DNA of 64,000 nt from an uncultured Bacilli bacterium. Lineage in GTDB: Bacteria; Bacillota_I; Bacilli_A; RF39; UBA660. Each line of letters opens with the position of its first letter. Positions within the stretch are counted from its first letter, which is position 1. Shown here piece by piece: positions 8,876-24,461 of this stretch. The notes under the pieces were generated by a model. It had not been told where the DNA came from. It saw only the letters and a list, made by a program, of their open reading frames with translations, and searched no databases. The stretch covers positions 2,072-66,071 of the forward strand of contig CATYVZ010000006.1 of assembly GCA_958413985.1 (NCBI GenBank). Direction: 5' to 3'. Position numbers and translations under genes: made by a program.

Positions 8876-9123
8876 TTGATAAAATTAGTGACTAAAACTT
8901 CAAGAACTCTAGTTCGATCAAATTTTGTTATCTTGTTTCTTGCTTCTTTATGACTTGAAATATAACCAGGATCTCCGCTCATCAAATAACCGACTAACTG
9001 ATTTTTAGCGTTGTATCCTCTTTCTTCAAGTATTTCGATTACATCTTTGATTGTCTTAGCAATCAATTCGTCTTCTATTTCATTGGCTGTAAAGATTTTC
9101 GTTTCATCCATTATGAACACCAC
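8872..9123 (-). CDS. ireB: UPF0297/DUF965 protein IreB (YrzL-like)
   Basis: 83 aa containing ...GYLMSGDPGYISSHKEARNKI... Confidence 0.75.
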   Translation of the reverse strand: MVFIMDETKIFTANEIEDELIAKTIKDVIEILEERGYNAKNQLVGYLMSGDPGYISSHKEARNKITKFDRTRVLEVLVTNFIK

Positions 9124-9227
9124 CTTATCACAATTTAATTTTATCAGAATTTTAAATATTTTACAACATCTAAAACAATAAACATTATTAAATAGTTGTA
9201 AACAACTTAATTATTAGAAAAAAAGAC

Positions 9228-10541
9228 CTAGAGTTGATTATCTAAATCATTTCTTTGACCATCTTTTATTATATATTCTTCTTTAGTTCTTGAATCATAG
9301 ACATAGGTTACCTTTTGTGGTGTATTAACTTCTTCTTTTTTTATAAATATATTTTCTATCTTTTCTTTTACCTGTTCTTTGTTAAATGGTTTTGATATGT
9401 AATCTACAAATCCTTCTTTGATATATTTTTCTCTTGCTCCTGATACTGCATCAGCTGTTAATGCTATTACTGGTGTTTTAAATTCTTTATTTTCTTTTAA
9501 TTTGGCTAAAGCTCTTTCACCACTCATATTAGGCATCATTATATCCATCAATATTAAATCATATTCTTTTTCTTTTACTTTTTCGATGCACTCTATTCCA
9601 TCATAACATTCTTCTATTTCAAAGTTAAAATCTTGCAATGCTTTAATTGCTACTTTGATGTTTAATTTATTATCATCTACTATCAATATCTTTTTGCCTG
9701 ATAAATCTTTTTTGTTTTCGTTAGATAACTCATTTATATCGATATTTTCTCTTTTTTGATTACTTATTTTCTGAGGTAAATAAACTACAAATATCGATCC
9801 TTTTCCGTATTGACTTTGAACATTTATCTTACCACCCATCATCTCTACTAATGACTTAGTTATAGCTAGTCCTAATCCGGTTCCTTCGGTTGTTGAATTC
9901 ATCTCAACATCTAATCTTTCAAATTTAGTGAATAATTTGTTGATATTTTCTGCTTTTATTCCTTTCCCTGTGTCCTTAACACTTATGATTAATTTACATA
10001 TATCTTTTTCATTGATACATTTTATTCCTAATGTTATCATACCTTTTTCTGTATATTTGATCGCATTAGACAATAAATTGTTGATTACTTGTTTTATATG
10101 AATCCTATCCCCGATTAATTCTTCCGGTAAATCTTCAGCTATATCTAATTTAAATTCGATTGGTTTTTCTTTTATTCTACTAGTCGTCACTTTACATAAT
10201 GACACTATTTCTTTTTTTAAATTATATGGAGTATTGATAATTTCCATTTTTTCTGATTCGATCTTATTTATATCTAAGATATTACCTACTATTTCCAATA
10301 GCGTTTGTGAAGCATTTTGAATATCAGTAGCATCTAAAGCTACTTCGTTTGGTACTTGATCTTTATAGCTTACGATATCTTCACTTAATCCTACTATTGC
10401 ATTTAATGGCGTTCTTATCTCATGAGACATACTACTTAAAAAGTCACTCTTAGCTCGATTAGCTTTCTCAGCTAAATCTTTTGCTAGAGTCATTTGTTGT
10501 AACATCTTAACATCTGGATTTTCGATTGTAAAATACATGAT
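9228..10541. repeat. 1314-bp direct repeat, copy A. It is >99.7 % identical to 22500..23813 and covers the HisKA-HATPase-REC coding part.
   Basis: The two copies align base-for-base at an offset of 13272 bp, with 3 differences: 9231/22503 (g/a), 9258/22530 (a/g) and 10518/23790 (a/g). The latter two are synonymous. Identity stops abruptly after ...aaatacatgat. Confidence 0.9.
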
Positions 10542-11159
10542 TACACAAATTAAAGTCTCTATATATGTCATAATCAAAAGTTGAGGATTACTTATTTGAA
10601 TAGAAATCGCTATACCACCGATAATTAAAAATATAAAAACAGGTATATATTTTTTATTTTTAAGTTTATTAATATTTGTTACCAACATAAATAATATAAC
10701 AATAATTGCTAAAGCCGAAATAAGATAAGTAAAATAAACACTCGCTCCAGTTGTATATCTTATTTTGAAATCATTCTCAATAATTATATTGATAGGTAAA
10801 ATAGATAAAATAATACCTACAATTATATAATATATAATAAATATAACATATCTATTCTTCTTAATTTCTAAATCATTATTTATGATACTATAAATATAAT
10901 AAGCAAATGTAGAAATCCATAGAATTATATAAAACAGATAAATTTTATAAATAATTACACTAATTAAAGGATGGTCAAAATAAATAAAAGAAGCATAAGT
11001 GCATAATAATTCTATTATCAATCCTACAAAATTAGAAATTATCAAAACACTGAATATTTGTGTCTCTTTACTATTTATATGTCCCTTAACATAAAACAAA
11101 ATTATAACTAACAAACTAAAAGGTACTGCACATAAAGGAAAAAATATTCCACTTCCCAT
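9228..11159 (-). CDS. Hybrid sensor histidine kinase, copy 1. It has a multi-TM sensor domain, HisKA, HATPase_c and a C-terminal receiver (REC) domain.
   Basis: H-box SHEIRTPLNAIVG, G-boxes (GTGLGLAI) and a REC domain (ILIVDDN...LILMDIMMP). The likely start is the second Met at 11159, which has a GGAGG RBS; the track start at 11177 has none. The C-terminal ~437 aa are identical to copy 2. Confidence 0.85.
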   Translation of the reverse strand: MGSGIFFPLCAVPFSLLVIILFYVKGHINSKETQIFSVLIISNFVGLIIELLCTYASFIYFDHPLISVIIYKIYLFYIILWISTFAYYIYSIINNDLEIKKNRYVIFIIYYIIVGIILSILPINIIIENDFKIRYTTGASVYFTYLISALAIIVILFMLVTNINKLKNKKYIPVFIFLIIGGIAISIQISNPQLLIMTYIETLICVIMYFTIENPDVKMLQQMTLAKDLAEKANRAKSDFLSSMSHEIRTPLNAIVGLSEDIVSYKDQVPNEVALDATDIQNASQTLLEIVGNILDINKIESEKMEIINTPYNLKKEIVSLCKVTTSRIKEKPIEFKLDIAEDLPEELIGDRIHIKQVINNLLSNAIKYTEKGMITLGIKCINEKDICKLIISVKDTGKGIKAENINKLFTKFERLDVEMNSTTEGTGLGLAITKSLVEMMGGKINVQSQYGKGSIFVVYLPQKISNQKRENIDINELSNENKKDLSGKKILIVDDNKLNIKVAIKALQDFNFEIEECYDGIECIEKVKEKEYDLILMDIMMPNMSGERALAKLKENKEFKTPVIALTADAVSGAREKYIKEGFVDYISKPFNKEQVKEKIENIFIKKEEVNTPQKVTYVYDSRTKEEYIIKDGQRNDLDNQL

Positions 11160-11187
11160 ATCATAACCTCCATACATCTATTTTGAT

Positions 11188-11219: not shown

Positions 11220-12986
11220 TTATATACTATTCTTCAATTTTAATACTTTTGAGGCATTTATTTTTTCAACTGCATCATTTTCTAAATAGTCATAGTCAAT
11301 TTTTTCTGTACCCTTTTTTCTAGGAATCTCTGAAACAAATTCAATATAAGTAGGTATTTCATAGCGTTTTAATTGTTCTACTTGTCCATTGGCAGTTATT
11401 ATCGGTTTATTAAACTGTTCTTTAATTTCTTCTAAAACTTGATCTGATTGTTCTACTCCATCATTTAAAACAATATACGCCTTATTAACATATAAAGAAT
11501 CTTTAGCTGGAACTTTAACAACAGCACATTCACTCACTTTATCAAAATAAGAAATAATGTTTTGAACACGATCACAATATACTTTATTTAATGTAGAAAT
11601 TATATAAAATCTTGACTGTCTTCCTGTTAAGGTAAAATAACCTTGACGATCAATGAAACCTAAAGTACCAGTTTTAAAGTATATTTTTCCATCTTTTTCA
11701 AATTTAGCTTCTTTAGTTAATTCTGGCTGTTTATAATATTCCTTAAAAACATGTTTACCACAAACACATAATAATCCTTCTTCGTTGTATTTTTTTTCTT
11801 CCATTGTATCAGGATCAACTATAATTGCCTCGGTTCCAACAAGAATCTTGCCAGCTGTTTCCGGTCTTATTTCGATTCCTGTTGGATTAGTTCCACAACT
11901 TACCGTTTCAGCATTTCCTGAACCATTACCTATTTCTACGTTCTTAGCTCCATGATTTTCAAAAAAGTCTTTACCTCTCTTATAATGATTTGGAGTCAAA
12001 AAATCTCCTCCAGAAATAAATGTAGTAATAGATGATAGATCTTGATCTTTAGGTGTATAACGCATAATTAATTCTAATAATGCTGGACTTCCAAAGATAA
12101 TATTAGGCTTTTTCTTCAAATAATAACAAATAGTATCTTTGGAAATATTAGGAGCAAGAATTGCTGTTTTTTTACTCAATAAAGTCATAATTGTTGATGT
12201 GGCAAAACCATAAGGATAAGAAAATGGTACGCATACGAGTGTTCTATCACCATTTAAAGATTTAATGTGACTAGAATTTTTTAAATATACTCCTGCCGCC
12301 AAAACATTTTCATTAGTTAAAACAACCGATTTTGGTTTACCTGTTGTACCACTGGTAAATAATATCAAAGCGTCATCTTTCCCAGAGTTATTTGCCAAAC
12401 CTTTGCTCTGATATTTAGAAATACTTCCTAAACTATTAAAGTCGATCTTACTGTCATCACTAGTAATATGATAATCTTCATTTAATGATAATGTATTTGT
12501 TTTTTGTTTATCTAAAGTAATAATATATTTAACATTTGTTTTATTTTTTATATTAATATTTTCTTCTTTACTTTTATCATAGTTAATGAAAACAGGTGAT
12601 TCGAATAAATTAAGATAATCACAAATTTCATCTACTTGTGCATTAATATCTAAAAATGTCATCACCGCACCAATTCGATTACAAGCTAAAAATGCTGCTA
12701 CCGCCTGATAATAATTGGGCATACACACTGAAATAATATCGTTTTTTTTGACACCTAATTCTTTTAAAGCTTTGGAAATAGTTATAGCATCTTTAAATAG
12801 TTGATCATAACTTACTGTTAGATCAAGACAATCAATAGCATCTTTTCCTTTATAAAATGAATTTATTAATTTAATAGAATTGTAAATACTCATATTAGGT
12901 ATAATTGGATTTTTAGCAAAAATTGAATAACCTTTATTCTGTGGTTTATCAAAACTAGGATAGTCTTTAAAGTTTTCTTCCTTCAT
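11220..12986 (-). CDS. adenylate-forming enzyme, copy 1 (AMP-dependent synthetase/ligase, acyl-CoA-ligase-like)
   Basis: A3/core motif LFTSGTTGKPKSV, a YGxTE-like motif and a C-terminal domain. Strong GGAAGGGGGA RBS. Confidence 0.8.
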   Translation of the reverse strand: MKEENFKDYPSFDKPQNKGYSIFAKNPIIPNMSIYNSIKLINSFYKGKDAIDCLDLTVSYDQLFKDAITISKALKELGVKKNDIISVCMPNYYQAVAAFLACNRIGAVMTFLDINAQVDEICDYLNLFESPVFINYDKSKEENINIKNKTNVKYIITLDKQKTNTLSLNEDYHITSDDSKIDFNSLGSISKYQSKGLANNSGKDDALILFTSGTTGKPKSVVLTNENVLAAGVYLKNSSHIKSLNGDRTLVCVPFSYPYGFATSTIMTLLSKKTAILAPNISKDTICYYLKKKPNIIFGSPALLELIMRYTPKDQDLSSITTFISGGDFLTPNHYKRGKDFFENHGAKNVEIGNGSGNAETVSCGTNPTGIEIRPETAGKILVGTEAIIVDPDTMEEKKYNEEGLLCVCGKHVFKEYYKQPELTKEAKFEKDGKIYFKTGTLGFIDRQGYFTLTGRQSRFYIISTLNKVYCDRVQNIISYFDKVSECAVVKVPAKDSLYVNKAYIVLNDGVEQSDQVLEEIKEQFNKPIITANGQVEQLKRYEIPTYIEFVSEIPRKKGTEKIDYDYLENDAVEKINASKVLKLKNSI

Positions 12987-13015
12987 TTATTAATCCCCCT
13001 TCCAAAATCAAATAT

Positions 13016-13044
13016 ATAATAACGCAAATAACATTTTATGTCAA
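13016..13044 (-). promoter_or_regulatory. sigmaA-type promoter for the ligase-1/kinase-1 operon (TTGACA-17-TATTAT)
   Basis: Minus strand reads TTGACAtaaaatgttatttgcgtTATTAT, about 30 nt upstream of the RBS. Confidence 0.45.
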
Positions 13045-13090
13045 TTTTATTAAAATGACTAAATAAACGTTTTTCCGCTTATATAATTTA

Positions 13091-13459
13091 TTATTTATAA
13101 TTTTTTATTCCTTCTATATATTTTTTATAAATTATTCTTAAATTCCATAACCAATTTACTACATAATCAGAAAATTCACTTTCACTACCTAACTTATCAT
13201 TACAGATATATTTTGTCTGAAGAATATCTGATTTTTCGTAAAGATTTATCAAAATTTCGTTATCAATCATGTCTAGTTTTCTAGTTTTTTCATATTGTGC
13301 TGCCCATTTTGATATTATTTCTAACATATTATTGTATATTTCAAAATCTTCTTTATAAGTATCAAATTGTAAAATCAAATTTAAATAACCCATAAGACTT
13401 ATAAAGCATTTGCTAATATTTTTATAAGTCGGATTTGAATCTATATATTTATTTTTCAT
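13091..13459 (-). CDS. hypothetical protein (122 aa)
   Basis: ORF with no recognisable motifs. Confidence 0.4.
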   Translation of the reverse strand: MKNKYIDSNPTYKNISKCFISLMGYLNLILQFDTYKEDFEIYNNMLEIISKWAAQYEKTRKLDMIDNEILINLYEKSDILQTKYICNDKLGSESEFSDYVVNWLWNLRIIYKKYIEGIKNYK

Positions 13460-13511
13460 AAATTTTCCTTTTTTTAATACATATTATAATTTTTTATTAT
13501 TTAGAAAATTA

Positions 13512-14028
13512 TTACAAATCAAATTCGTAAATATTTTCTATGATTTTCAATCCACCAACATTTCCATCTTCACTATCGATTATTTTTCCACCTAATGCCG
13601 TGTAAAAATTTTCAGATGGACTTCCTTTTAAACATCTAACTATTATATTTTTATATCCCATATTTTTTAACAAATCAAAACATTCTGTAATTAATTTTTT
13701 ACCAATTCCTTTTCTTTGATTTTCTTTTTCTATATATATTGAATAAACTTCACCCATATCTACATAATCATTTCCACGTCCTTTACCATAGCAAGCAAAA
13801 CCCAATATGTCATTATCTTCTTCATAAACAATATAATGATATTCATTATCTTTTTTTATAGCTTCTTTTATATTATTATTTCTTTGTTCAAAATTTTTCT
13901 CTTGATTTATAAATATTTCTTCAGGAAAAAACTCACTATAAGTTGTCTTCCATGAATTTATATGTATTCTAGTTATTTTTTTTATGTGTTTATAGGTAAT
14001 CTTTGAAATACTTTTACATTTTTTCCAT
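13512..14028 (-). CDS. GNAT family N-acetyltransferase whose 5' end is disrupted by a +1 frameshift in an A6 tract. This could be a pseudogene, a slippage site or a sequencing error.
   Basis: The GNAT body frame is open from 14033 down to 13512 (...ITRIHINSWKTTYSEFFPEE...YHYIVYEEDNDILGFACYG...QRKGIGKKL...) with no in-frame start. An ATG at 14028 is followed by ATGGAAAAAATGTAA. Removing one A from the tract (14019..14024) fuses the ATG in frame, giving MEKCKSISKITYKHI... A TRTG-extended -10 (TGTGgCATAAT) lies at 14070..14081. Confidence 0.5.
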
Positions 14029-14170
14029 AAATATCACTTAATTCTTTATCTATATTTGATTCAAGATGTGATTATGCCACACGAAAGAAAATGGATATTA
14101 AAAATAATCTTATGATTTAGGACTAATTCTATGATTTATTTATCAACTTTAATATCAATAATAAAACACA

Positions 14171-14887
14171 TCATATATTTAGAATACTTTTAACTTCTTT
14201 TGCAGCTTGACAAATCAATTTAGTGCCATTTGACAAACATATTTTTCCATGACCAGATAAAACTATATCAGCTTTATATTTTGTTAACTTTATTATACTA
14301 TTAACAATTGCTTCTTTATTAAAAGCTGGATCCCCTTCCCAACCAAATAAAAATTTATTTAAGAAGACGCCATCTGCTTCCAATGTGTCACCGGTAAACA
14401 AAACAAATTCACCATCAACTTTTGCCCTAATAGCCATTCCTCCATTTGTATGCCCTGGTATCATAATAAATTCAAATACAATACCATTGATAATCATTTC
14501 TTGATCTACAAATATTTCTACATCAGGAATAAACGCAGGAAATGATTGTTCTATGTCATCTGATGTTCCTTTTGGACCGCCTTGTTTACAATAATTTGTA
14601 TCACCTGCCCCTACTATTATCTTTGCACCTGTCATTTGTAATTCTTTAGCACCGCCACAGTGATCATGGTGTCCATGAGTAAGAATAACATGCGTTATAG
14701 GCGAATTAATATTAAATTTTTTTAACGTTTTTCTTATTATAGCAGGACCGTTTAAAGCCTCTCCGCAATCTATTAATATTAATCCTTGATCTGTATTTAT
14801 ACCATATACTTCGCCTAATGTCCCTTTATTATTTTCAGCAGCAAAGCAGCTACCACTTAAATAAAATAAATTATTTGAAATTATCAA
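14171..14887 (-). CDS. MBL-fold metallo-hydrolase
   Basis: HxHxDH motif (THGHHDHCGG) with the downstream His and Asp ligands. TTG start with a GGAGG RBS. Confidence 0.75.
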   Translation of the reverse strand: MIISNNLFYLSGSCFAAENNKGTLGEVYGINTDQGLILIDCGEALNGPAIIRKTLKKFNINSPITHVILTHGHHDHCGGAKELQMTGAKIIVGAGDTNYCKQGGPKGTSDDIEQSFPAFIPDVEIFVDQEMIINGIVFEFIMIPGHTNGGMAIRAKVDGEFVLFTGDTLEADGVFLNKFLFGWEGDPAFNKEAIVNSIIKLTKYKADIVLSGHGKICLSNGTKLICQAAKEVKSILNI

Positions 14888-14915
14888 TTAAATCATCCTC
14901 CTTAAGATAAATTAT

Positions 14916-15623
14916 TTAATCAGCAATATCTACTGTTTCATCATCATTTGAAATAAGTTCAATATTTCCTTTACAAATTCTATAACATTTCCCATAAATT
15001 TTATTATTAAATACATATGATTTATCAGGAAGTCCATAAATAATTCTATTATTTGATTCTTTTATTATTGCATCCATTTGAATCTTGTTAGGATTATCAC
15101 AATCAAAATGCGGCTCAACATTAATTGTAGTTAAATCAAGTCCTTCTAATATAGTAGGGTTAGTTAAATCTTTTTCATTTTCAGGACTACTAAATACAAT
15201 TTTTGCACTATTTATTGAACCAGCACTTATGCCAACAATACACGCATCAGTTTTTTTTATATATTTTTTAAGATTTATGTTATTAAAAAACTTGTTTTGT
15301 TGAAATGCATTACCACCACTAAGAAAAATAAGTGAACTATTATTAAGTACATTATCAATATCTTCTTTATTACGATTATCAAGTACAACATTTTCCTTGA
15401 AGTGAAGCCCAGATAACGCTAGGACTTTCATATCTAATTTTAGATACTCATCATTTTGTTCATAATTATCAGGATCGCTCGCAATAATAACAAATTTATT
15501 ATAATTATTTATATTTTCCTTCATATTTTTTAAAAAATTATTATCTTCAAAAAATTTTACTGGTATTTTTTTACCATTTTCTTTTTTTATCCCCCCAATA
15601 TTACTAGCTAAAAATAATTTCAT
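14916..15623 (-). CDS. S51 family peptidase (peptidase E/cyanophycinase-like; Asp-Xaa dipeptidase fold)
   Basis: LSGGN and GISAGS nucleophile-elbow motifs, plus conserved His and Glu. Strong AAGGAGGA RBS. Confidence 0.65.
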   Translation of the reverse strand: MKLFLASNIGGIKKENGKKIPVKFFEDNNFLKNMKENINNYNKFVIIASDPDNYEQNDEYLKLDMKVLALSGLHFKENVVLDNRNKEDIDNVLNNSSLIFLSGGNAFQQNKFFNNINLKKYIKKTDACIVGISAGSINSAKIVFSSPENEKDLTNPTILEGLDLTTINVEPHFDCDNPNKIQMDAIIKESNNRIIYGLPDKSYVFNNKIYGKCYRICKGNIELISNDDETVDIAD

Positions 15624-15633
15624 TTTATCCTCC

Positions 15634-16656
15634 TTATTTATTAATGTTATACAATAAACTATTTTCTATATTTTTTTGTAAAGTTAACACTTTGTAAAAC
15701 TCATCTTTTTTTTGTTCAAAACTAGAATGATATTCCGCACCCAAATAATTTATAATTAAATTAACTACATCTTCATTAGGATATTGTAATTGCTCATTCC
15801 AATAATTTAATACACGTAAATATTGCCTAAATTTCATTCTTAAATGCTTGGATGAATGATTAGTAACATCTTCTTTTAATAAAATTGCTACAGCTACTAA
15901 TGCATCAGCAAATTTTTCTTTCATAATAGAATCTATATCAAGAAAATCTGCTATTCTTGAGCTGGATACTGTTGAACTTGTACCAAATTTACACATTGAT
16001 AAAGCTAAGTTACTGATTCCCATATCGACAGCTAACTTTCTTTCATTATTTTCCATAACAACAAAAGAAGCAAAATTCAAAAACTCGTTTGTACCTTTTT
16101 TTTTAAGTCCTATATTAAAATCCCTTCCAAAAATATTTTTTTCATCCATACCATATCGATGTCTATAATGTTCAATACTTGATTGATCAACTAAACGAGT
16201 TATTTTACTATCAACATTTTCAGTAGCCTTTATTAAATCCTCATCCGTAGAACTTACCCTTATACAAAGATTTTCAGGAGAGATATGCAAATATTTTTCA
16301 TCAGTTAAATAATCAAAAGTATCTTTAACAATTCTTTCTAGTTCTGGTTTTGCTATTATTCCCATTCCTCTATAATAACAGCCAAATTTTTGCGGTACAT
16401 TTGTTTGTAAATATTTAAATGATTTAAATTTCATACACTCTTGCACGATATATCTTCCAACATCACCGTAATTTTCAGTCTCTAAGTATTTTTTTAATGG
16501 TGAAATATTAGAACCAATAAAGTCAACCGTTGGATCAATTTTTGAAGTAACATTAACTGCAAGTTCTTCAATGTATCCTTTCTCATTAAAACAAACTTTA
16601 AATTTTTCTTCTATAAAATCTAAATATTCGCTTTTGCTAATTTTTTTATCACTCAT
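15634..16656 (-). CDS. stand-alone paralog of the alanyl-tRNA synthetase catalytic core (class II aaRS-like, AlaRS N-terminal domain only)
   Basis: 340 aa that align by eye to the first ~250 aa of the alaS in this window. DPTVDFIGSNISPLKKYL matches DPSVLFNTAGMQPLIPYL, QECMKF matches QKCIRT, ISPENLCIRVS matches IPVERLAVTVF, and AVDMGISNLALS matches the motif-3 region NVDTGMGYERV. The tRNA-recognition and editing domains are absent. Confidence 0.55.
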   Translation of the reverse strand: MSDKKISKSEYLDFIEEKFKVCFNEKGYIEELAVNVTSKIDPTVDFIGSNISPLKKYLETENYGDVGRYIVQECMKFKSFKYLQTNVPQKFGCYYRGMGIIAKPELERIVKDTFDYLTDEKYLHISPENLCIRVSSTDEDLIKATENVDSKITRLVDQSSIEHYRHRYGMDEKNIFGRDFNIGLKKKGTNEFLNFASFVVMENNERKLAVDMGISNLALSMCKFGTSSTVSSSRIADFLDIDSIMKEKFADALVAVAILLKEDVTNHSSKHLRMKFRQYLRVLNYWNEQLQYPNEDVVNLIINYLGAEYHSSFEQKKDEFYKVLTLQKNIENSLLYNINK

Positions 16657-16661
16657 TTATA

Positions 16662-18506
16662 TCACTCTACTTCTTTTTTATCGTTAGACATTTTTAATAG
16701 TTCTCCTAAATAATAACTAATATTAGATTCAGTTACACTATTATTAATACTACCTTTATACGAATCAAGTTTTAAAAAACTATCAATTTCTTTTCCCAAT
16801 TGTTTAACAGTTTCTTTATACATTTGTGTATTAAATCTAGGAGTACATATTAATATACTTTTTGTAAGATTTATTTTATGTTTTTTAATTAATTCAACTG
16901 TTTTAGCCACTGATTCATTAGTATCCCCCATCATACCAAGCATAAAGAAACCATTATAATTAATTCCTGCTTTTTTGATTGCATATAGGGCTTTTAATAA
17001 TTGTTCATTAGAATAATTCTTGTTATTAATTTTACGAACATTTTCATCAAAACTTTCAATTCCTAACCAAATTAATTGGCAACCTGCTTTTTTCATAACA
17101 ACAAGAGTATCATAATCTATTGAATTTATACAAATCTGACATTGCCATTTGATTTGAATATTAGCCTTTATCATTTCTTTACATAAATTTTTTGCGTAAT
17201 TTTTATCAAGTATGAAATTCTGATCTAAGAAAAATATTTCTGTTATTCCACGTTTTTGTATTTCTTTTAATTCAGCTACTACTGATTCTATTTTTCTAAA
17301 ACGAACACTTTTGGCAAAAAAGTTGTAACAAAAAGCACAATTAAATGGACACCCTCTACTTGCCTGAACAATACTCCAGTGCAATTTTCTTACTGGCATA
17401 TTGTCATGATACCTATAACCAAAATAACAATCTAAATGAATCAAATCATAATTAGGTATATATTTACACCATTCAGTTGGATGTTGTTCATTCAAATCTT
17501 CTCTTGTTTTAATTAATTTTTTATTCTTTTTATAAATAATATTGGGAAGATTTTCAATTGGAAGATTTTGATCCATATCCCTAATTATATTAGCAAGCTG
17601 GATATCAAATTCGCCTTTTAATATATAATCTGGGTTACAATCTTTAAAGACGATATCTGGTCTCACAGTACCATGTCCTCCGCATACAATAATTGGTATA
17701 TTATTAAACTTATTTTTGATAGTTTTTACATATTTTGTAAAAACTACATAACGATAATCAACAAAATAATTATGTACTTGATCAACTGTTGAAGAACAAA
17801 TGACTATTCCTTTTTTGTAATCACGTATAATATTAAGTAAATCAGTTAATGAATAATTATAAATTCGATTATCAAGAATATCAACATCTATAAAAAAATT
17901 ATTTTTTAAATAAGTTGCACAATTCATTAAAGCTAAAGGCGGTTGAACAAAAGTTGTTCCATTTAAAAATTCTGGTATTAAGAATATGTATTTCCCTTTT
18001 TTCTTGAATTTTTTACTCATATCATTATTTAAACTTGTAATTGCATCAGTTAAATAATCTGGGGCTTCTTTAGTAATTTCTTCTATTTTCTTTTTACTTA
18101 TATCAAGTTGTTTTGGGCTATAAACACGATGCGTATTTTTTATAAAGTATAATATAGCAACAAGTTTTCTGGGTTTCATATCCTCGATAGCAAAAATTGC
18201 ATCAAATATTTCATTCTGTAAAGATTTTGTAGTATACTTATAAATTATTGATGATAATTCAATGATCTGTGCTATAAAATTTGATTGTTTTTTAATGCTA
18301 CTAACAACTTTTCTAACATATTCTCTTTTTTCCACTAAAGTTGCCTGTTTTAAAAAATATGTACGCATAATAAGCAATAAATTAATTTGTTCTGATTCAC
18401 TAAATTTATCAATTTTTTTTATAGTTTCATCATAAATTTCTTTTTGTTTCTTATTATTATATGTATTTATTCTTTTTATTTTTAATAATAATGTTTCTTT
18501 ATCCAC
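16662..18506 (-). CDS. B12-binding-domain radical SAM enzyme (class B radical SAM) with an unassigned ~170-aa N-terminal domain
   Basis: CxxxCxxC (RGCPFNCAFCYN), a preceding Rossmann-like B12-binding region (...IPIIVCGGHGT...), and a GTG start with an AGGAGA RBS. It lies 17 nt downstream of the preceding gene. Confidence 0.75.
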   Translation of the reverse strand: MDKETLLLKIKRINTYNNKKQKEIYDETIKKIDKFSESEQINLLLIMRTYFLKQATLVEKREYVRKVVSSIKKQSNFIAQIIELSSIIYKYTTKSLQNEIFDAIFAIEDMKPRKLVAILYFIKNTHRVYSPKQLDISKKKIEEITKEAPDYLTDAITSLNNDMSKKFKKKGKYIFLIPEFLNGTTFVQPPLALMNCATYLKNNFFIDVDILDNRIYNYSLTDLLNIIRDYKKGIVICSSTVDQVHNYFVDYRYVVFTKYVKTIKNKFNNIPIIVCGGHGTVRPDIVFKDCNPDYILKGEFDIQLANIIRDMDQNLPIENLPNIIYKKNKKLIKTREDLNEQHPTEWCKYIPNYDLIHLDCYFGYRYHDNMPVRKLHWSIVQASRGCPFNCAFCYNFFAKSVRFRKIESVVAELKEIQKRGITEIFFLDQNFILDKNYAKNLCKEMIKANIQIKWQCQICINSIDYDTLVVMKKAGCQLIWLGIESFDENVRKINNKNYSNEQLLKALYAIKKAGINYNGFFMLGMMGDTNESVAKTVELIKKHKINLTKSILICTPRFNTQMYKETVKQLGKEIDSFLKLDSYKGSINNSVTESNISYYLGELLKMSNDKKEVE

Positions 18507-18523
18507 AATTCATGTCTCCTATA

Positions 18524-20707
18524 TTATTTTTTAAAATCAGTTTCACTAATTTTACTTTCAACTATTTTAAACTTTTTATTTTCATATACTATTTTACAAT
18601 AATCAATATCAATATATTGTTCACCATCAATTGCTGACTTCAAATTACTCATTGTTGCTCCATGAGTAATGATTGCAAACTTCTTATAAGAACTATTAAC
18701 TAAATATTTTTCTAAAAAATACATTAATCTTTCCCTAACATGATTAATACTTTCACCATCAGCTACAACTTTATTATAATTAACAATTGCCTCTTTACCT
18801 TCTTGACTATTTAAAAAATCAGAAAGTGGTTTACCTTGAAATTTTCCCACATTCCAAGCTCTTAACTCTTTATGAAAAGATACTGGTATTTTAAAACCAT
18901 TATTAGCTAGTTCAACGGTTCTTCTAGTCCTAATAAGATCTGATGAATAAATATATTCAATTTCATTTTTCTTTAATTCTAAAGCAATTTTATTAATTTG
19001 CTCTAATCCTTTATCAGTAAATTTCAAAGATGCATCTTCAAATGTTCCTCTAATTTTATTTTCAACATTCCAATTAGTTTCACCATGTCTAAAAATATAA
19101 ATTTCTTTTTTGTCATTTTTTTTACTATTCTTCTCTTCTAACTTTTTCATTGGAGATAATCTATCTCTTAATCTGAAATCCATATTTTTATTATCGTTAA
19201 CAAAATCTTCTATTTTATTTATTTTTTTATCTGGAAAAAACATATTATAATATGCAATTGCTGTTTGAACATCTTGTTCTGACATTTCAAAGTGTCCTAG
19301 TTTAACTAACCCTAAGAAATCTTTATACTTATCCCTATCTAGTTGTTCACTTAATTCTTGATTTAATATTGAAGTATTAGAATTTAGATAATATTTTTTT
19401 ATAACATTTTTAGGTGATTTTATTAATTTTTGCATACTAACAGGCATGTTTTCTATTAATTTTTCATTTACAAGCCCTTGCTTTATGTAATCTTGTAATA
19501 TTCTAATATAAGCATAAAGCCTTATTTTTGCATCAGCAAAAAGGATTGCACTTGCATAATCTCTAATACCATTAGCTTTCATTAACGTAACTGTTTTAGG
19601 TGATATTTCTAATACAATTTTTTCTCTATATTTTGAACCATTATCAATATATGCTCTTGTAATTAAATTTGTCAATGTATGATTTAATGATGTTTCGTAA
19701 TTATCTTCATAGATATTTAATTGATCATCTTGAATACTATTTTGCCATGTACTAATGTTGCCATTATATTCTACAAGCCAATCTAATCCAAATCCACCAT
19801 CAGAATTATATACACGTGACGGAAAATAATTTTGTGATTCATCTAAATCTATGTCATACAGTTCTACCATTTTCATAAATGATTCATTATTATGTAGATT
19901 TGGTCTAAATGATGGATAAAATACCCTTGATATTCCAATTATTATTTCAAAACCAGAATCGAGTATTAATTTTGATTTCCAAGGCATTATCTTAATAATT
20001 TTATCATCATCAGATTTATTAGGTTGAAACTTTTCAATTTTATATTTTCTCCCAATTGTTTTTAGATTATTTTCTAATGTTGAATCTTCTTTAAATGTTT
20101 TTATTTGTAAAGTAAAGTTTTTATTATATCTATATTTAGATTCAAATATATTAATTAAGTTTTCTAACGGAAGATGTTTTAATTTAATACTATGATATTG
20201 ACTAACACTTAATCTAATAGAGATACGTGCTTTCTTTTTTCTTTTTTTGATAGCTTGATATATTTCATCTAAATATTTTTCCGCTCTTTCTTTATTATAT
20301 GCCCATAGACCACCAGTAACTAAAACTATCCTATCAGCGTTTATTTTTTCAATACTTTTTAATAGTGCTTCTTTTTCTAAAAAAGGCTCTCCGCCACCAG
20401 ATATTTGTAAATAACCAACATTTGCTTTATTAGCAAAATCAATAAATTTATCAACACCTTCAGGAGTAAATTGATTCTTAATATTCTTTTTACTAGCTGA
20501 CGATAAAGCTTTAAAACAGCAGAAAGGACAGCCAACATCACACACTGATGTAAACATAACCAATACCAATGATTTTCCTGCATATTTTTTCTTATCAATT
20601 TTTAATAAACCTTCTTGTTTATTAATTGAATCTATATACATTTCTGGATAATTAAATATATTTTCTATATTACAATCAATATTTTTTATTTCTTCTTTTT
20701 TCACCAT
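18524..20707 (-). CDS. fusion protein: N-terminal radical SAM domain, a central domain of unknown function, and a C-terminal histidine phosphatase (phosphoglycerate-mutase-like) domain
   Basis: CDVGCPFCC radical-SAM cysteine triad with a QISGGGEP SAM-binding motif. The C-terminus has IYIFRHGETNWN (RHG catalytic motif) and ...IITHGATM... typical of the His_Phos_1 superfamily. Confidence 0.75.
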   Translation of the reverse strand: MVKKEEIKNIDCNIENIFNYPEMYIDSINKQEGLLKIDKKKYAGKSLVLVMFTSVCDVGCPFCCFKALSSASKKNIKNQFTPEGVDKFIDFANKANVGYLQISGGGEPFLEKEALLKSIEKINADRIVLVTGGLWAYNKERAEKYLDEIYQAIKKRKKKARISIRLSVSQYHSIKLKHLPLENLINIFESKYRYNKNFTLQIKTFKEDSTLENNLKTIGRKYKIEKFQPNKSDDDKIIKIMPWKSKLILDSGFEIIIGISRVFYPSFRPNLHNNESFMKMVELYDIDLDESQNYFPSRVYNSDGGFGLDWLVEYNGNISTWQNSIQDDQLNIYEDNYETSLNHTLTNLITRAYIDNGSKYREKIVLEISPKTVTLMKANGIRDYASAILFADAKIRLYAYIRILQDYIKQGLVNEKLIENMPVSMQKLIKSPKNVIKKYYLNSNTSILNQELSEQLDRDKYKDFLGLVKLGHFEMSEQDVQTAIAYYNMFFPDKKINKIEDFVNDNKNMDFRLRDRLSPMKKLEEKNSKKNDKKEIYIFRHGETNWNVENKIRGTFEDASLKFTDKGLEQINKIALELKKNEIEYIYSSDLIRTRRTVELANNGFKIPVSFHKELRAWNVGKFQGKPLSDFLNSQEGKEAIVNYNKVVADGESINHVRERLMYFLEKYLVNSSYKKFAIITHGATMSNLKSAIDGEQYIDIDYCKIVYENKKFKIVESKISETDFKK

Positions 20708-20761
20708 TTTTCAACATCTACTTTCTTTGTTTTTTTTACAAGATTCCTATTATTAAACATA

Positions 20762-22201
20762 CTATCTTTTATTAAATTCTTTTATCTTTCTTTTTGCATA
20801 AGTGGTCTGTGCTTTATTTATCCAATCTTCTCTTGGCCCAAATGATAAATCATCAGTAACTATTCTAACTCTATCTTTATTTTGTAATACATAATCTACT
20901 GGTACATATTCATCATTTACAAACACTCCAACCATTGTGTTTCCTATATCTGTATGAATTTTATAGGCAAAATCTATCGCTGTCGCCCCTTTGGGAAGCT
21001 CTATAATATCTCCTTTAGTTGTATAAACATATACTCTATCAGCAAATAATTCACTTTTTACTTGATTTATAAATTGTTGATTATCTCCAAACATAGAATT
21101 TATTTCTGTTAACGATTTAAAAAATTGAAATTTTTCTTTTAGATTCTCTTGCATCACATCTCTTGCTTTTCCTTTTTGTTCATCCCAATATGCCGTTAAA
21201 CCAAACGATGCTACTTTGTCCATATCGAAAGTTCTAATTTGAGTTTGAACTAATCTATCATCAGGACCAAACACTGTCGTATGTAAACTTCTATACATAT
21301 TTGTTTTTGGATTACATATATAATCTTTAAATTTATCATTTATTGGATGATATTCTTGATGAATCAAACCTAATGTTAAGTAACAATTTTCTATTTCATC
21401 AACCATTATTTTTAAAGCAAGCAAATCATGAATATCTGATAATTTATGACCTTCATTTAATCTTTTGTATATACCATATATATTTTTAGTTCTTACTTTT
21501 ATTTCATTAGGTATATTCCTATTTTTTAATAATGTTTCTATTTTATATAGCATTTCCTTAAGACAGTTTTTACTTGTTTCTTCAATCTTTGTTTTTCTTT
21601 CTTCAATTTTTTTATACATGTCTGGTTTAAGATATTGTAAAGATAAATCTTCTAGTTCTGACTTTATTCTATATGCTCCGATATAATATGCAAGTGGTAC
21701 AAATATTTCCATCGTTTCAAGGGCATTTTCTTTTTGCTTAAATTCTGATTTAAACTCTAATGTTCTCATATTATGAAGTCTATCGGCAAGTTTTATTATA
21801 ATTATTCTTACATCTTCTGTTATTCCTGTTATTATCTTTCGAGTATTTGCTAAATTTTGATCTTGTTTCGAAGAAAAATTCATTTTAGATAGTTTTGTTA
21901 CTCCATCTACTAAATTAGCAATATTTTGGTTAAAATCATGGGCAATATCTTCTTTAGTAATATTAGTATCTTCTAAAGTATCATGTAAAAGACCTGCACA
22001 TACTGTATCTTTATCAGCATGCATGTCAGATAAAATATATGCAACATTCAAAGGATGACTTATATATGGTTCACCACTTTGTCTCATTTGTCCTTTATGC
22101 AAAGCATCTGCATATTCATAAGCCTTTTTTACAATTCCTATCTCATCTGGATTATATTCTTCTAGTTTATTTAATAAATCTTGTAACACAATATTATTCA
22201 T
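20762..22201 (-). CDS. RelA/SpoT homolog (long RSH; HD hydrolase + synthetase + TGS) that lacks the C-terminal helical/ACT(RRM) region. The true start is at 22201.
   Basis: HD motif LLHDTLEDT, synthetase motifs (IHDLLALKIMV; RSLHTTVFGPDDRLVQTQIRTFDMDKVASFGLTAYW) and a TGS domain (VYVYTTKGDIIELPKGATAIDFAYKIHTDIG). The ATG at 22201 has a GGAGGTG RBS. The 24-codon upstream extension in the ORF track lacks one. Confidence 0.8.
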   Translation of the reverse strand: MNNIVLQDLLNKLEEYNPDEIGIVKKAYEYADALHKGQMRQSGEPYISHPLNVAYILSDMHADKDTVCAGLLHDTLEDTNITKEDIAHDFNQNIANLVDGVTKLSKMNFSSKQDQNLANTRKIITGITEDVRIIIIKLADRLHNMRTLEFKSEFKQKENALETMEIFVPLAYYIGAYRIKSELEDLSLQYLKPDMYKKIEERKTKIEETSKNCLKEMLYKIETLLKNRNIPNEIKVRTKNIYGIYKRLNEGHKLSDIHDLLALKIMVDEIENCYLTLGLIHQEYHPINDKFKDYICNPKTNMYRSLHTTVFGPDDRLVQTQIRTFDMDKVASFGLTAYWDEQKGKARDVMQENLKEKFQFFKSLTEINSMFGDNQQFINQVKSELFADRVYVYTTKGDIIELPKGATAIDFAYKIHTDIGNTMVGVFVNDEYVPVDYVLQNKDRVRIVTDDLSFGPREDWINKAQTTYAKRKIKEFNKR

Positions 22202-22250
22202 CAAAACACCTCCGAATAGAAAAATAATCGGTGCTAAAAACACATAATGT

Positions 22251-22388
22251 TTAACTAGCACCGATATTATCATATTTGTTATTTAAAGCAGAATAGAAAC
22301 ATGAACAAATAATGTCAGTAAAATATTGATTTCTAACACTTAATTCTTTTACATAATCAATGATTAATTCATCAATTAGTTTTATCAT
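22251..22388 (-). CDS. small protein (45 aa), first gene of the operon
   Basis: MIKLIDELIIDYVKELSVRNQYFTDIICSCFYSALNNKYDNIGAS. It has a very strong RBS (GAGGGGGAA + 6 nt + ATG) directly downstream of the operon promoter. Confidence 0.45.
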   Translation of the reverse strand: MIKLIDELIIDYVKELSVRNQYFTDIICSCFYSALNNKYDNIGAS

Positions 22389-22420
22389 ACTAAATTCCCC
22401 CTCAAATAAATTTAAGCAAT

Positions 22421-22448
22421 ATTTTACTACTTTACAAAAAAATGTCAA
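22421..22448 (-). promoter_or_regulatory. sigmaA-type promoter (TTGACA-16-TAAAAT) for the operon small ORF -> rel-like -> rSAM/His-phosphatase -> B12-rSAM -> AlaRS-like -> S51 peptidase -> MBL hydrolase
   Basis: Minus strand reads TTGACAtttttttgtaaagtagTAAAAT, followed by intergenic gaps of only 5-54 nt down to 14171. Confidence 0.45.
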
Positions 22449-22499
22449 TAGTTTTATAAAAATAAATCACCGTTAAAACAATTAATATCTAAAATACAT

Positions 22500-23813
22500 C
22501 TAAAGTTGATTATCTAAATCATTTCTTTGGCCATCTTTTATTATATATTCTTCTTTAGTTCTTGAATCATAGACATAGGTTACCTTTTGTGGTGTATTAA
22601 CTTCTTCTTTTTTTATAAATATATTTTCTATCTTTTCTTTTACCTGTTCTTTGTTAAATGGTTTTGATATGTAATCTACAAATCCTTCTTTGATATATTT
22701 TTCTCTTGCTCCTGATACTGCATCAGCTGTTAATGCTATTACTGGTGTTTTAAATTCTTTATTTTCTTTTAATTTGGCTAAAGCTCTTTCACCACTCATA
22801 TTAGGCATCATTATATCCATCAATATTAAATCATATTCTTTTTCTTTTACTTTTTCGATGCACTCTATTCCATCATAACATTCTTCTATTTCAAAGTTAA
22901 AATCTTGCAATGCTTTAATTGCTACTTTGATGTTTAATTTATTATCATCTACTATCAATATCTTTTTGCCTGATAAATCTTTTTTGTTTTCGTTAGATAA
23001 CTCATTTATATCGATATTTTCTCTTTTTTGATTACTTATTTTCTGAGGTAAATAAACTACAAATATCGATCCTTTTCCGTATTGACTTTGAACATTTATC
23101 TTACCACCCATCATCTCTACTAATGACTTAGTTATAGCTAGTCCTAATCCGGTTCCTTCGGTTGTTGAATTCATCTCAACATCTAATCTTTCAAATTTAG
23201 TGAATAATTTGTTGATATTTTCTGCTTTTATTCCTTTCCCTGTGTCCTTAACACTTATGATTAATTTACATATATCTTTTTCATTGATACATTTTATTCC
23301 TAATGTTATCATACCTTTTTCTGTATATTTGATCGCATTAGACAATAAATTGTTGATTACTTGTTTTATATGAATCCTATCCCCGATTAATTCTTCCGGT
23401 AAATCTTCAGCTATATCTAATTTAAATTCGATTGGTTTTTCTTTTATTCTACTAGTCGTCACTTTACATAATGACACTATTTCTTTTTTTAAATTATATG
23501 GAGTATTGATAATTTCCATTTTTTCTGATTCGATCTTATTTATATCTAAGATATTACCTACTATTTCCAATAGCGTTTGTGAAGCATTTTGAATATCAGT
23601 AGCATCTAAAGCTACTTCGTTTGGTACTTGATCTTTATAGCTTACGATATCTTCACTTAATCCTACTATTGCATTTAATGGCGTTCTTATCTCATGAGAC
23701 ATACTACTTAAAAAGTCACTCTTAGCTCGATTAGCTTTCTCAGCTAAATCTTTTGCTAGAGTCATTTGTTGTAACATCTTAACATCTGGGTTTTCGATTG
23801 TAAAATACATGAT
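22500..23813. repeat. 1314-bp direct repeat, copy B (partner of 9228..10541)
   Basis: See copy A. Confidence 0.9.
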
Positions 23814-24413
23814 AATAACAATTAGCGAAAAAACATATCCTATTAAAAATAATTGTGGATAAAAAACACCTAAAACAAAAACTAAACCACCTAAAAAAAT
23901 TAAGGCATATAATGGTGTAAATTTAGATTTTACAATTTTCTTCATATATTTTATGCAAATAATTATATCAAACATTAAAAATAGCAAACACAAACCGTAA
24001 GTTAAATAAATTGATAATCCTTGCGGAATTATGGTATCGTCAACTCTAATAAAGTTGATTGGTAACAACAATATAATTAATACGATAAAAGCAACAATAA
24101 AATTAAATATTCTATTTCTATTTTCTTTATAGTTACATATATTTAACAAATAATTTAAAAACAATGCGCTCCAAACAGCATAATATGAAGATGTTAATTT
24201 AGAAAACAACTTATATATAGTTGTTTCAACAGATATTCCAGATTCATACCAAATACAAGTTAATATTTCTAAAAATAACCCCAATAATGTAACTATTAAT
24301 AACTTACTATAAATAGTTGTTTCACTATTTTTTACTCTTTGTTTTGAAAAAAACATAAATGACAAAATTAACAATATTAGTAATGAACTAATTGAAAAAT
24401 ACACACCCATCAT
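22500..24413 (-). CDS. Hybrid sensor histidine kinase, copy 2. Its multi-TM sensor domain differs from copy 1; the transmitter and receiver are identical to copy 1.
   Basis: The C-terminal ~437 aa are identical to copy 1. The N-terminal ~200 aa (about 6 TM segments) are unrelated in sequence. Start is ambiguous between GTG at 24422 and ATG at 24413 or 24410. Confidence 0.85.
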   Translation of the reverse strand: MMGVYFSISSLLILLILSFMFFSKQRVKNSETTIYSKLLIVTLLGLFLEILTCIWYESGISVETTIYKLFSKLTSSYYAVWSALFLNYLLNICNYKENRNRIFNFIVAFIVLIILLLPINFIRVDDTIIPQGLSIYLTYGLCLLFLMFDIIICIKYMKKIVKSKFTPLYALIFLGGLVFVLGVFYPQLFLIGYVFSLIVIIMYFTIENPDVKMLQQMTLAKDLAEKANRAKSDFLSSMSHEIRTPLNAIVGLSEDIVSYKDQVPNEVALDATDIQNASQTLLEIVGNILDINKIESEKMEIINTPYNLKKEIVSLCKVTTSRIKEKPIEFKLDIAEDLPEELIGDRIHIKQVINNLLSNAIKYTEKGMITLGIKCINEKDICKLIISVKDTGKGIKAENINKLFTKFERLDVEMNSTTEGTGLGLAITKSLVEMMGGKINVQSQYGKGSIFVVYLPQKISNQKRENIDINELSNENKKDLSGKKILIVDDNKLNIKVAIKALQDFNFEIEECYDGIECIEKVKEKEYDLILMDIMMPNMSGERALAKLKENKEFKTPVIALTADAVSGAREKYIKEGFVDYISKPFNKEQVKEKIENIFIKKEEVNTPQKVTYVYDSRTKEEYIIKDGQRNDLDNQL

Positions 24414-24461
24414 AACACCCACTTATTAATAAAATTTAACATCATTTACTTATCTCTAAAA

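Follow-up and report, generated by a model that had tools for sequence, protein, structure and literature searches.

What does a free-standing protein resembling the catalytic core of alanyl-tRNA synthetase (AlaRS) do in a bacterium that has a genuine alaS gene close by? The question is raised by a gene at 15634..16656 (minus strand, 340 aa, ATG start; here called the target) in a 64,000-nt stretch of DNA, the window, from an uncultured Bacilli bacterium (GenBank assembly GCA_958413985.1, contig CATYVZ010000006.1, positions 2,072 to 66,071). An earlier note on this DNA had described the product as a stand-alone AlaRS paralog, encoded inside an operon about 10 kb from the genuine alaS, and had proposed that it ligates an amino acid to a non-tRNA acceptor. 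Its account of the location was confirmed: the target gene lies in an operon-like row, and the genuine alaS, at 26373..28133 and 9.7 kb from the target, scores 806.8 bits against the NCBIfam model NF002436 (cut-off 529) and 464 bits against PF01411, carries a tRNA_SAD domain and looks like a housekeeping gene. The genuine enzyme is a short, 586-aa form (NF002436 equivalog) that ends just past the tRNA_SAD motif of the editing domain and has no C-Ala domain. The target itself is almost certainly a protein of the AlaRS fold and not a synthetase.

Direct similarity between the two proteins is slight. BLASTP aligned the target with the window AlaRS over residues 8–76 with an E value of only 0.01, and the target fails the curated AlaRS models PF01411, TIGR00344 and NF002436: Pfam gave no match at E <= 1, TIGR00344 (NCBIfam) did not match, and NF002436 matched residues 15–183 on profile positions 6–169 with E = 1.4e-6 at 27.2 bits. 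Searches of PDB sequences with the single protein and with a subfamily profile returned nothing relevant. A hidden Markov model (HMM) built from 137 family representatives, on the other hand, gave 66 bits for the AlaRS of the window and 62 bits for that of E. coli; its alignment falls into two segments, which take in the VD(T/M)G block and the helices that first follow the catalytic domain. The blocks that had been aligned by hand (DPT.., Q(E/K)C, I(S/P)(P/V)E(N/R)L and VD(T/M)G) fall in the same register in this profile alignment. The AlphaFold2 model of the target is confident (predicted local distance difference test, pLDDT, 91.7; predicted template modelling score, pTM, 0.89), and its best 24 Foldseek matches were all AlaRS (E 7e-17 to 1e-8, query TM-score 0.57–0.75), with TM-scores of 0.69–0.75 for the 19 bacterial and human AlaRS catalytic fragments. 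The target therefore has the AlaRS-type class-II catalytic fold, and its homology to AlaRS is well beyond chance, though the direct similarity is weak. Of the checks proposed in the earlier note, structural superposition supported its assignment, and the PF01411 search was negative for the target and positive for distant relatives, P0153 (40.1 bits), P0180 (33.1 bits) and P0104 (32.9 bits) reaching the PF01411 threshold.

These relatives belong to a superfamily that comprises at least 471 clusters at 50% identity, this being the number recovered by exhaustive profile search at E <= 1e-3 (344 at E <= 1e-10); the target family itself has 59 clusters at 90% identity. Proteins matching the profile over its full length are stand-alone proteins of about 320–400 aa with conserved D41, K55, Q72, Y164, G169, R178, D251 and Y279, a description that fits the target. 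Their hosts are actinomycetes, marine bacteria, Patescibacteria and uncultured Bacilli and Clostridia of the gut. Among named genome records, the one nearest to the target is 'Mycoplasma sp. CAG:611' (84% identity), and the target subfamily was also found in uncultured Bacilli, Erysipelotrichaceae, 'Tenericutes' UMGS1613, Clostridium sp. CAG:417, Clostridia, a Christensenellaceae metagenome-assembled genome (MAG), a bin labelled Alphaproteobacteria, Patescibacteria and Shapirobacteria. No relatives were detected when 2.9 million viral contigs were scanned with the subfamily profile. In databases the proteins of the cassette described below are labelled 'hypothetical', 'histidine phosphatase family protein' or 'alanine--tRNA ligase-related protein', the last being the NCBI name of member P0100, and the literature searched contained no account of such a cassette or combination of domains, a review covering AcmF (below) being the one relevant paper.

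The target was considered as a recent duplicate of the host alaS and rejected as such, given the marginal BLASTP value and a family profile that scores the host and E. coli enzymes alike; it does not derive from the host gene. Instead, it is a member of an old superfamily spread over several phyla, whose genes often lie by recombinases; in the sense of descent from the host alaS, the paralogy named in the earlier note is not supported.

Residues 1–243 of the target form the class-II AlaRS-type catalytic fold, and residues 244–339 form four helices in the AlphaFold2 model; in the alignment these correspond to the beginning of the tRNA-recognition domain of AlaRS (the ADH..PSN..RGYVLRR region). 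The tRNA-binding and editing domains had both been reported missing. The editing and C-Ala domains are indeed absent, and Pfam found no tRNA_SAD domain in the target, ruling out an AlaX-type editing paralog; part of the tRNA-recognition domain, however, is retained as the four helices. It stops before the equivalent of D400 and has Ser at the position of N303, these two residues being the readers of the G3:U70 pair in E. coli AlaRS. The target accordingly lacks the complete set of tRNA-recognition, editing and C-Ala domains of a synthetase.

Active-site residues were mapped onto E. coli AlaRS with Met1 counted as 1, so that R69, N212, D235 and G237 of the literature are R70, N213, D236 and G238 here. 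Substitutions at residues otherwise invariant in AlaRS, which had been read by eye, were borne out by this mapping. In motif 2, R70 is replaced by K76, a position occupied by Arg in 129 of the 137 superfamily representatives; W171 is replaced by H166; the GPCGPCTE loop becomes FGRDFN, with R178 and N181 invariant in the subfamily; N213 is replaced by S197 (Asn in 125/137); and in motif 3 ('GLER') R243 is replaced by A218. The motif-3 arginine of class-II synthetases binds ATP; in this column the five commonest residues among the 137 representatives are T, V, N, A and S, and never Arg. Thus neither the motif-2 nor the motif-3 arginine of the class is present in the target. The α-amino-binding D236 is kept as D211 (Glu in 125/137), G238 as G213 and V215 as V199, so that the alanine pocket retains D211, G213 and V199 and has H166 and S197 in place of Trp and Asn, an alteration that stops short of destroying it.

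The signature residues of the target are K76, H166, R178, N181, S197, E202, D211 and G213, and within the subfamily the pocket-lining Q72, H166, R178, N181, E202 and D211 are invariant or nearly so. At positions 76/197/211, all 36 members of the window's subfamily have K/(S,T,A)/D, and 78 of 80 loci of the wide family have R/N/E. The signature tracks the set of partner genes, K/(S,T,A)/D going with a radical-SAM-phosphatase and a Peptidase_S51 gene and R/N/E occurring elsewhere.

A link to aminoacyl-nucleoside pathways had been suggested, and it proved apt, since the closest characterised analogue of the target is AcmF of ascamycin biosynthesis in Streptomyces sp. 80H647 (ACS Catal 2024;14:3533, reviewed in PMC12945691). 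AcmF, the only characterised truncated AlaRS-like enzyme, consists of aminoacylation and tRNA-recognition domains only and is without most of the residues for ATP binding and alanine activation; its donor is Ala-tRNA and not ATP plus alanine (PMC12945691). It passes Ala from Ala-tRNA(Ala), made by an extra AlaRS (AcmD), to the nucleoside sulfamate dealanylascamycin, and the hydrolase AcmE of the same cluster undoes the alanylation (PMC12945691).

This bears on the ligase proposed earlier, an ATP-dependent enzyme that would activate an amino acid as the aminoacyl-adenylate and pass it to a non-tRNA acceptor, like AsnA, EpmA/PoxA and further truncated paralogs of class II. The class-II fold is intact, D211 and G213 are kept, the motif-2 Arg is replaced by another basic residue (K76), the tRNA-recognition domain is cut short, and the three-gene core described below encodes no other amino-acid-activating enzyme, all of which would suit such a ligase. 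However, the motif-3 Arg is missing from the commonest residues throughout the family, the subfamily has Lys for the motif-2 Arg and Ser/Thr/Ala for the equivalent of N212 (literature numbering), and AcmF, with similar losses, does not activate alanine and uses Ala-tRNA. Moreover, a separate tRNA-synt_2 core adjoins the AlaRS-like gene in 50 of 80 sister cassettes, suggesting that activation is done by another protein. We therefore disfavour the ligase and regard it as unlikely.

The genomic setting of the target was compared in 19 non-redundant loci, the window included. In the window, the target stands in a tight same-strand row comprising genes for a RelA/SpoT protein, a radical S-adenosylmethionine (radical-SAM)/His_Phos_1 fusion, a B12-binding radical-SAM protein, the target, a Peptidase_S51 protein and a metallo-beta-lactamase (MBL)-fold protein, the genes from Rel to MBL being separated by 5–54 nt. 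The target ATG is 5 nt from the stop of the upstream B12-radical-SAM gene, and the S51 gene begins 10 nt downstream of the target with a ribosome-binding site (AAGGAGG). A scan of 12900..22700 found only one good promoter-like site in an intergenic gap, upstream of Rel at 22448-22421, and no terminator-like sites.

The fusion gene (18524..20707, minus strand, 727 aa) encodes a radical-SAM core and helical domain in its N-terminal ~530 aa, with invariant C56, C60 and C63 and no other invariant cysteine, and a PhoE/CobC-type histidine phosphatase with an RHGET motif in its C-terminal ~190 aa. It is found beside the AlaRS-like gene in 18 of the 19 loci, the exception being at a contig end, and in L004 and L008 it overlaps that gene by 13 nt. 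The radical-SAM-phosphatase is an obligate partner of the AlaRS-like gene. The S51 gene (14916..15623, minus strand, 235 aa; PF03575, 57.4 bits), of the PepE/cyanophycinase family of serine hydrolases, is likewise present in 18/19 loci, again with a contig end as the exception, and is divergent in L019. Since alignment with E. coli PepE shows the equivalents of Ser120 and His157 to be kept, the peptidase looks active. In one protein, P0277 (951 aa), the radical-SAM, His_Phos_1 and Peptidase_S51 parts are fused. A second pairing of a synthetase with a phosphatase was seen in P0308 (1167 aa), in which a MetRS-like class-I synthetase is fused to His_Phos_1.

In five loci (L014, L016, L017, L018 and L022) the next gene downstream of the cassette encodes a large serine recombinase, and in L004 a tyrosine integrase and an HTH_17 gene lie beside it, upstream. 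The three-gene core (radical-SAM-phosphatase, AlaRS-like protein and S51) is thus a compact mobile cassette. A compositional anomaly that would mark recent transfer was sought in the window and rejected, the G+C content of the 14001–18000 bins (0.26–0.27) lying within the window-wide range of 0.22–0.34. In L017 (Tenericutes UMGS1613) the radical-SAM-phosphatase is reduced to a C-terminal remnant of ~95 residues (8982-9266), with the AlaRS-like and S51 genes looking intact; this may be a decaying cassette.

The remaining genes of the row are not part of the core. The B12-binding radical-SAM gene (16662..18506, minus strand, 614 aa; Pfam Radical_SAM and B12-binding), encoding a class-B methyltransferase-like protein with PhpK-, HpnJ- and BchE-type matches in NCBIfam that are all below cut-off, was seen only in the window, L006, L007, L010 and L011. 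The MBL-fold hydrolase gene (14171..14887, minus strand, 238 aa; Lactamase_B, 84.3 bits), whose homologue in L006/L007 has a weak Apyc1-type match, co-occurs with it in only four loci, and both are accessory. The RelA/SpoT (p)ppGpp synthetase/hydrolase gene (20762..22273, minus strand, 503 aa; TIGR00691, 529.5 bits) was considered as a core component and rejected because its adjacency is confined to one lineage, the gut Bacilli (the window, L001-L003, L006, L010 and L011); it is probably a housekeeping gene on a shared transcript.

The coupling and overlap with the radical-SAM-phosphatase gene suggest a complex, and together with the loss of the canonical catalytic arginines this would accord with a non-catalytic role of the target, as a subunit that binds a ligand or tRNA and regulates the radical-SAM/phosphatase or presents its substrate, comparable to HisZ with HisG or to Pol gamma B. 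Against this, the pocket positions Q72, H166, R178, N181, E202 and D211 are all but invariant in the subfamily, and the pocket co-varies with the partners, which fits substrate-specific catalysis better, although it also fits specific ligand binding; in addition, a radical-SAM homologue occurs without an AlaRS-like gene (in L114, below). Such a role is decidedly unlikely. The target is more probably a catalytically re-purposed enzyme of the AlaRS fold.

Because of the analogy with AcmF and the residue losses, we tentatively propose, with a confidence a little below the midpoint, that the target is an AcmF-like aminoacyl transferase, probably dependent on aminoacyl-tRNA, which acts on a nucleoside-type product of the radical-SAM/phosphatase and whose reaction is reversed by S51. 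The fold, residue pattern, linkage, mobility and context are observed; the donor, acceptor, amino acid and catalysis itself are inferred. In the proposed pathway, i) the radical-SAM/phosphatase would turn a phosphorylated primary metabolite, likeliest a nucleotide, into a modified, dephosphorylated product, ii) the AlaRS-like protein would move an aminoacyl group onto that product to give an aminoacyl-nucleoside-type compound, the likeliest donor being an aminoacyl-tRNA whose 3' end sits in what was the AlaRS active site, as with AcmF, iii) S51 would hydrolyse that aminoacyl linkage again, whether as self-protection, as activation or for recycling, and iv) in the window, the B12-radical-SAM and MBL proteins may add optional tailoring.

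Several points weigh against this proposal. The tRNA-recognition domain of the target is far shorter than that of AlaRS and, by description, that of AcmF, and since it is short and the G3:U70 readers are not conserved or lie beyond the C-terminus, tRNA binding is only putative. The α-amino-binding Asp and the motif-2 Lys are kept and may allow some adenylate chemistry. When a profile search was seeded with the actinomycete members, the matches were hypothetical proteins of Actinoallomurus and Streptomyces, and none bore the name AcmF. The core cassette holds no dedicated aminoacyl-tRNA synthetase (aaRS), exporter or regulator of the kinds usual in classical antibiotic clusters. Finally, the nearest solved relative of the partner radical-SAM domain is a peptide epimerase. 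The short tRNA-recognition domain and this kinship leave room for editing of a tRNA-held aminoacyl group, in which the AlaRS-like protein would clamp the 3' end of an aminoacyl-tRNA, or an aminoacyl-adenylate, while the YydG/EpeE-like radical-SAM enzyme edits the aminoacyl group. Possible edits would be C-alpha epimerisation or C-H functionalisation, after which the phosphatase and S51 might release the product. We consider this a long shot; if true, it would amount to tRNA-templated small-molecule biosynthesis, with a logic like that of PEARL/pearlin, built from an aaRS fossil and mobile in gut Bacilli and Patescibacteria.

The AcmF-like transferase can also be viewed against the wider superfamily. 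Metagenomes were scanned with the wide-family profile, giving 80 loci (L032-L111), and neighbours within 4 kb were clustered and the clusters annotated by Pfam. Nearly all neighbours were on the same strand as the AlaRS-like gene. The most frequent were Peptidase_S66 of the MccF/LdcA family (58/80 loci), a stand-alone tRNA-synt_2 catalytic core of the Asp/Lys/Asn type (50/80) and a SAM methyltransferase (49/80), followed by an HD phosphohydrolase (22/80), a full tRNA-synt_2b aaRS (16/80), a radical-SAM protein (13/80) and a pair of dCTP-deaminase-like (DCD) proteins (10/80). The 366-aa radical-SAM protein of these 13 loci was considered as the counterpart of the window's radical-SAM and rejected, the similarity being limited to the cluster-binding motif (E 0.2). 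Individual superfamily loci add NUDIX proteins, RimL/MccE-type GNATs, Amidohydro_2 and an HD fusion of the AlaRS-like protein, and L027 has GNAT (Acetyltransf_3) genes. A recurrent cassette of Patescibacteria type, for example in L027 (5985-10442), consists of a tRNA-synt_2 core, the AlaRS-like protein, a SAM methyltransferase, Peptidase_S66 and HD; the AlaRS-like protein is sometimes fused to HD and the methyltransferase to S66, and full class-II aaRS or GNAT genes are often near. This tRNA-synt_2/AlaRS-like/S66 cassette is apparently undescribed. Synthetase genes were also seen directly beside two loci, a TyrRS gene downstream of S51 in L001 (14317-15546; a lineage of 55% identity) and a ProRS gene upstream of a sister AlaRS-like gene in L029; both may be housekeeping genes that are there by chance, or their synthetases may have a functional link to the AlaRS-like protein.

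Members from two cultured actinomycetes sit in what are plainly natural-product clusters. In Actinoallomurus sp. CA-142502 (L112, 8957-11940) a module of two DCD genes, the AlaRS-like gene and a sulfotransferase gene lies between non-ribosomal peptide synthetase (NRPS) and polyketide synthase (PKS) genes, the whole cluster containing two NRPS, two DCD, AlaRS-like, sulfotransferase, MATE, hydrolase, GNAT, PKS and thioesterase genes. In Streptomyces sp. NPDC096152 (L113, 8952-14285) the S66 and AlaRS-like genes overlap, and after this pair comes a gene for an additional GlyRS, a 993-aa alpha-beta fusion that is a candidate for conferring self-resistance or for supplying the donor; upstream, on the opposite strand, are genes for a tRNA-synt_2 core, an aminotransferase, an ATP-grasp enzyme and an MFS transporter. 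A marine locus from TARA (L115, 7001-12025) carries a stand-alone radical-SAM homologue, a separate His_Phos_1, S66 and an AlaRS-like protein (family HMM, 248 bits). Because S66 there stands beside homologues of the radical-SAM and phosphatase, S66 and S51 look interchangeable. The same locus carries a Vut_1 (YhhQ-type) transporter gene. In a Rhabdochlamydia MAG (L114, 6136-10197) a radical-SAM homologue is flanked by genes for a dNK-like nucleoside kinase and a NUDIX protein, and an AlaRS-like gene is absent.

Across the superfamily the nucleotide-acting neighbours thus include a kinase, phosphatases, NUDIX, HD, DCD, a methyltransferase and radical-SAM proteins. MccF cleaves aminoacyl-nucleotides and PepE cleaves Asp-X dipeptides. 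The recurring theme is an AlaRS fold without the motif-3 Arg, together with nucleotide-acting enzymes and a peptidase whose family is known for cleaving aminoacyl- or aspartyl-linked small molecules; speculatively, the S51 and S66 families point loosely towards aspartate as the amino acid.

The same hydrolases would be expected if the cassette served detoxification or salvage, dismantling or modifying an imported aminoacyl-nucleoside or -nucleotide (a microcin-C-like toxin or a nutrient, in auxotrophic reduced-genome hosts) that the AlaRS-like protein binds or re-acylates. S66 (MccF) and GNAT (MccE) proteins are the immunity enzymes of microcin C against aminoacyl-nucleotides, and S51 in the core cassette, MccF-like S66 and RimL/MccE-like GNATs in the sister cassettes, the gut Bacilli and Patescibacteria as hosts and the lack of an exporter in the core cassette all agree with such a role. 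Against it stand the radical-SAM enzyme, sometimes joined by the B12-radical-SAM, since these are costly catalysts of a biosynthetic type, and the actinomycete members placed within NRPS/PKS clusters with efflux pumps. We give detoxification or salvage a slim chance.

Likewise, a mobile accessory cassette beside recombinases that encodes a radical-SAM enzyme and a phosphatase might be thought to make a modified nucleotide for anti-phage defence in the manner of viperin. However, PADLOC found no match for the AlaRS-like, S51 or radical-SAM-phosphatase proteins, the absence of the family from the viral contigs gives no sign of phage carriage, and no defence-island neighbours were seen. Viperin was a weaker structural match to the partner radical-SAM, which is not of the viperin type. 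Anti-phage defence is therefore very improbable.

Some further features of the window surround the cassette. Two hybrid histidine kinases, encoded at 9228..11177 and 22500..24422, have diverged in their membrane N-termini and share their C-terminal ~440 aa, comprising HisKA, HATPase and receiver domains, through a direct repeat of 1323 bp (99.5% identity) at 9219-10541 and 22491-23813. The two copies of the repeat flank a segment of about 12 kb that holds the whole cassette. They could reflect gene conversion, could allow the segment to be deleted or duplicated, or could be an assembly issue. Two AMP-binding (acyl/aryl-adenylate-forming) enzymes, 25% identical, are encoded at 11220-12986 and 24462-26180, each just upstream of one of the duplicated kinase genes; they were considered as the amino-acid activator and rejected, because their position beside the cassette is not conserved in other genomes. 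Two open reading frames (ORFs) on the minus strand lie just downstream of the cassette: one of 97 aa (13512-13805), probably truncated, whose match to a GNAT acetyltransferase covers the C-terminal half only, and one of 122 aa (13091-13459) with no match in Pfam, NCBIfam or PADLOC. No tRNA genes were found across the 64-kb window.

If the transferase proposal is correct, AcmF would be the visible tip of a large AlaRS-derived aminoacyl-transferase family, and the three-gene cassette would be a new natural-product candidate whose product is likely an aminoacylated nucleoside-type compound. Known compounds of this type, such as ascamycin, microcin C, albomycin and agrocin 84, are Trojan-horse inhibitors of aminoacyl-tRNA synthetases. 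The cassette might thus point to unexplored chemical warfare or metabolite exchange among reduced-genome bacteria of the human and animal gut and episymbiotic Patescibacteria, and it could supply new biocatalysts for aminoacyl-nucleosides, being small enough for heterologous expression.

Three kinds of known proteins and systems other than AcmF can be compared with the target and its partners. The canonical AlaRS fragment (E. coli AlaRS 1-441, PDB 3hxu; also 9jc7) shares with the target the DPT, Q-x-C and VD-x-G blocks as well as the α-amino-binding Asp and its neighbouring Gly, at ~14% identity, and the hairpin between N213 and D236 is shorter in the target than in the E. coli enzyme. Microcin C systems resemble the sister cassettes in S66, SAM-dependent transferases and RimL-type GNATs, and in L115 S66 replaces S51; the window, in contrast, has S51 and not S66. 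Genes for an MccB (ThiF-like) adenylyltransferase or a precursor peptide were not seen, and the pathway is not a ribosomal peptide-nucleotide one. The radical-SAM peptide epimerase EpeE/YydG (PDB 8ai1) is the nearest solved structure to the partner enzyme, which differs in being without the conserved auxiliary-cluster cysteines, in its added helical domain of ~190 residues and fused histidine phosphatase, and in having no evident precursor-peptide gene beside it.

AcmF and the target, compared by description, are both stand-alone truncated AlaRS folds without editing and C-Ala domains that have lost residues for ATP binding and alanine activation, and both are encoded beside builders of a nucleoside-type acceptor (putative here) and an aminoacyl-removing hydrolase (AcmE there, S51 here). 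The spacing of AcmF residues R93-E216 (123) and Q219-E232 (13) is close to that of the target (118 and 14) and suits the short-loop superfamily better than E. coli AlaRS (140 and 23). At the N212 and D235 positions (literature numbering), AcmF has Gln and Glu (N219Q, D232E), the target has S197 and D211, and the wider superfamily has N and E; the target further differs from AcmF in having Lys in place of the motif-2 Arg. The tRNA-recognition domain of AcmF is described as reading G3:U70, whereas the target keeps only ~95 helical residues. AcmF-type systems have a reversing hydrolase and a dedicated or resistant aaRS; the former has a putative counterpart in the S51 of 18/19 loci, and as to the latter, the core cassette contains no aaRS, with full aaRS genes adjoining the sister cassettes (the 16/80 loci above and the GlyRS of L113). 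The partners of AcmF are sulfamate and halogenation enzymes, an alpha/beta-hydrolase and the dedicated AlaRS AcmD, and those of the target are the radical-SAM/phosphatase fusion and S51; the host of AcmF is an actinomycete, and those of the target subfamily are uncultured gut Bacilli and Patescibacteria. Relative to the AcmF-like AlaRS-derived transferases, therefore, the target subfamily is new in its active-site signature, its partner enzymes and its hosts.

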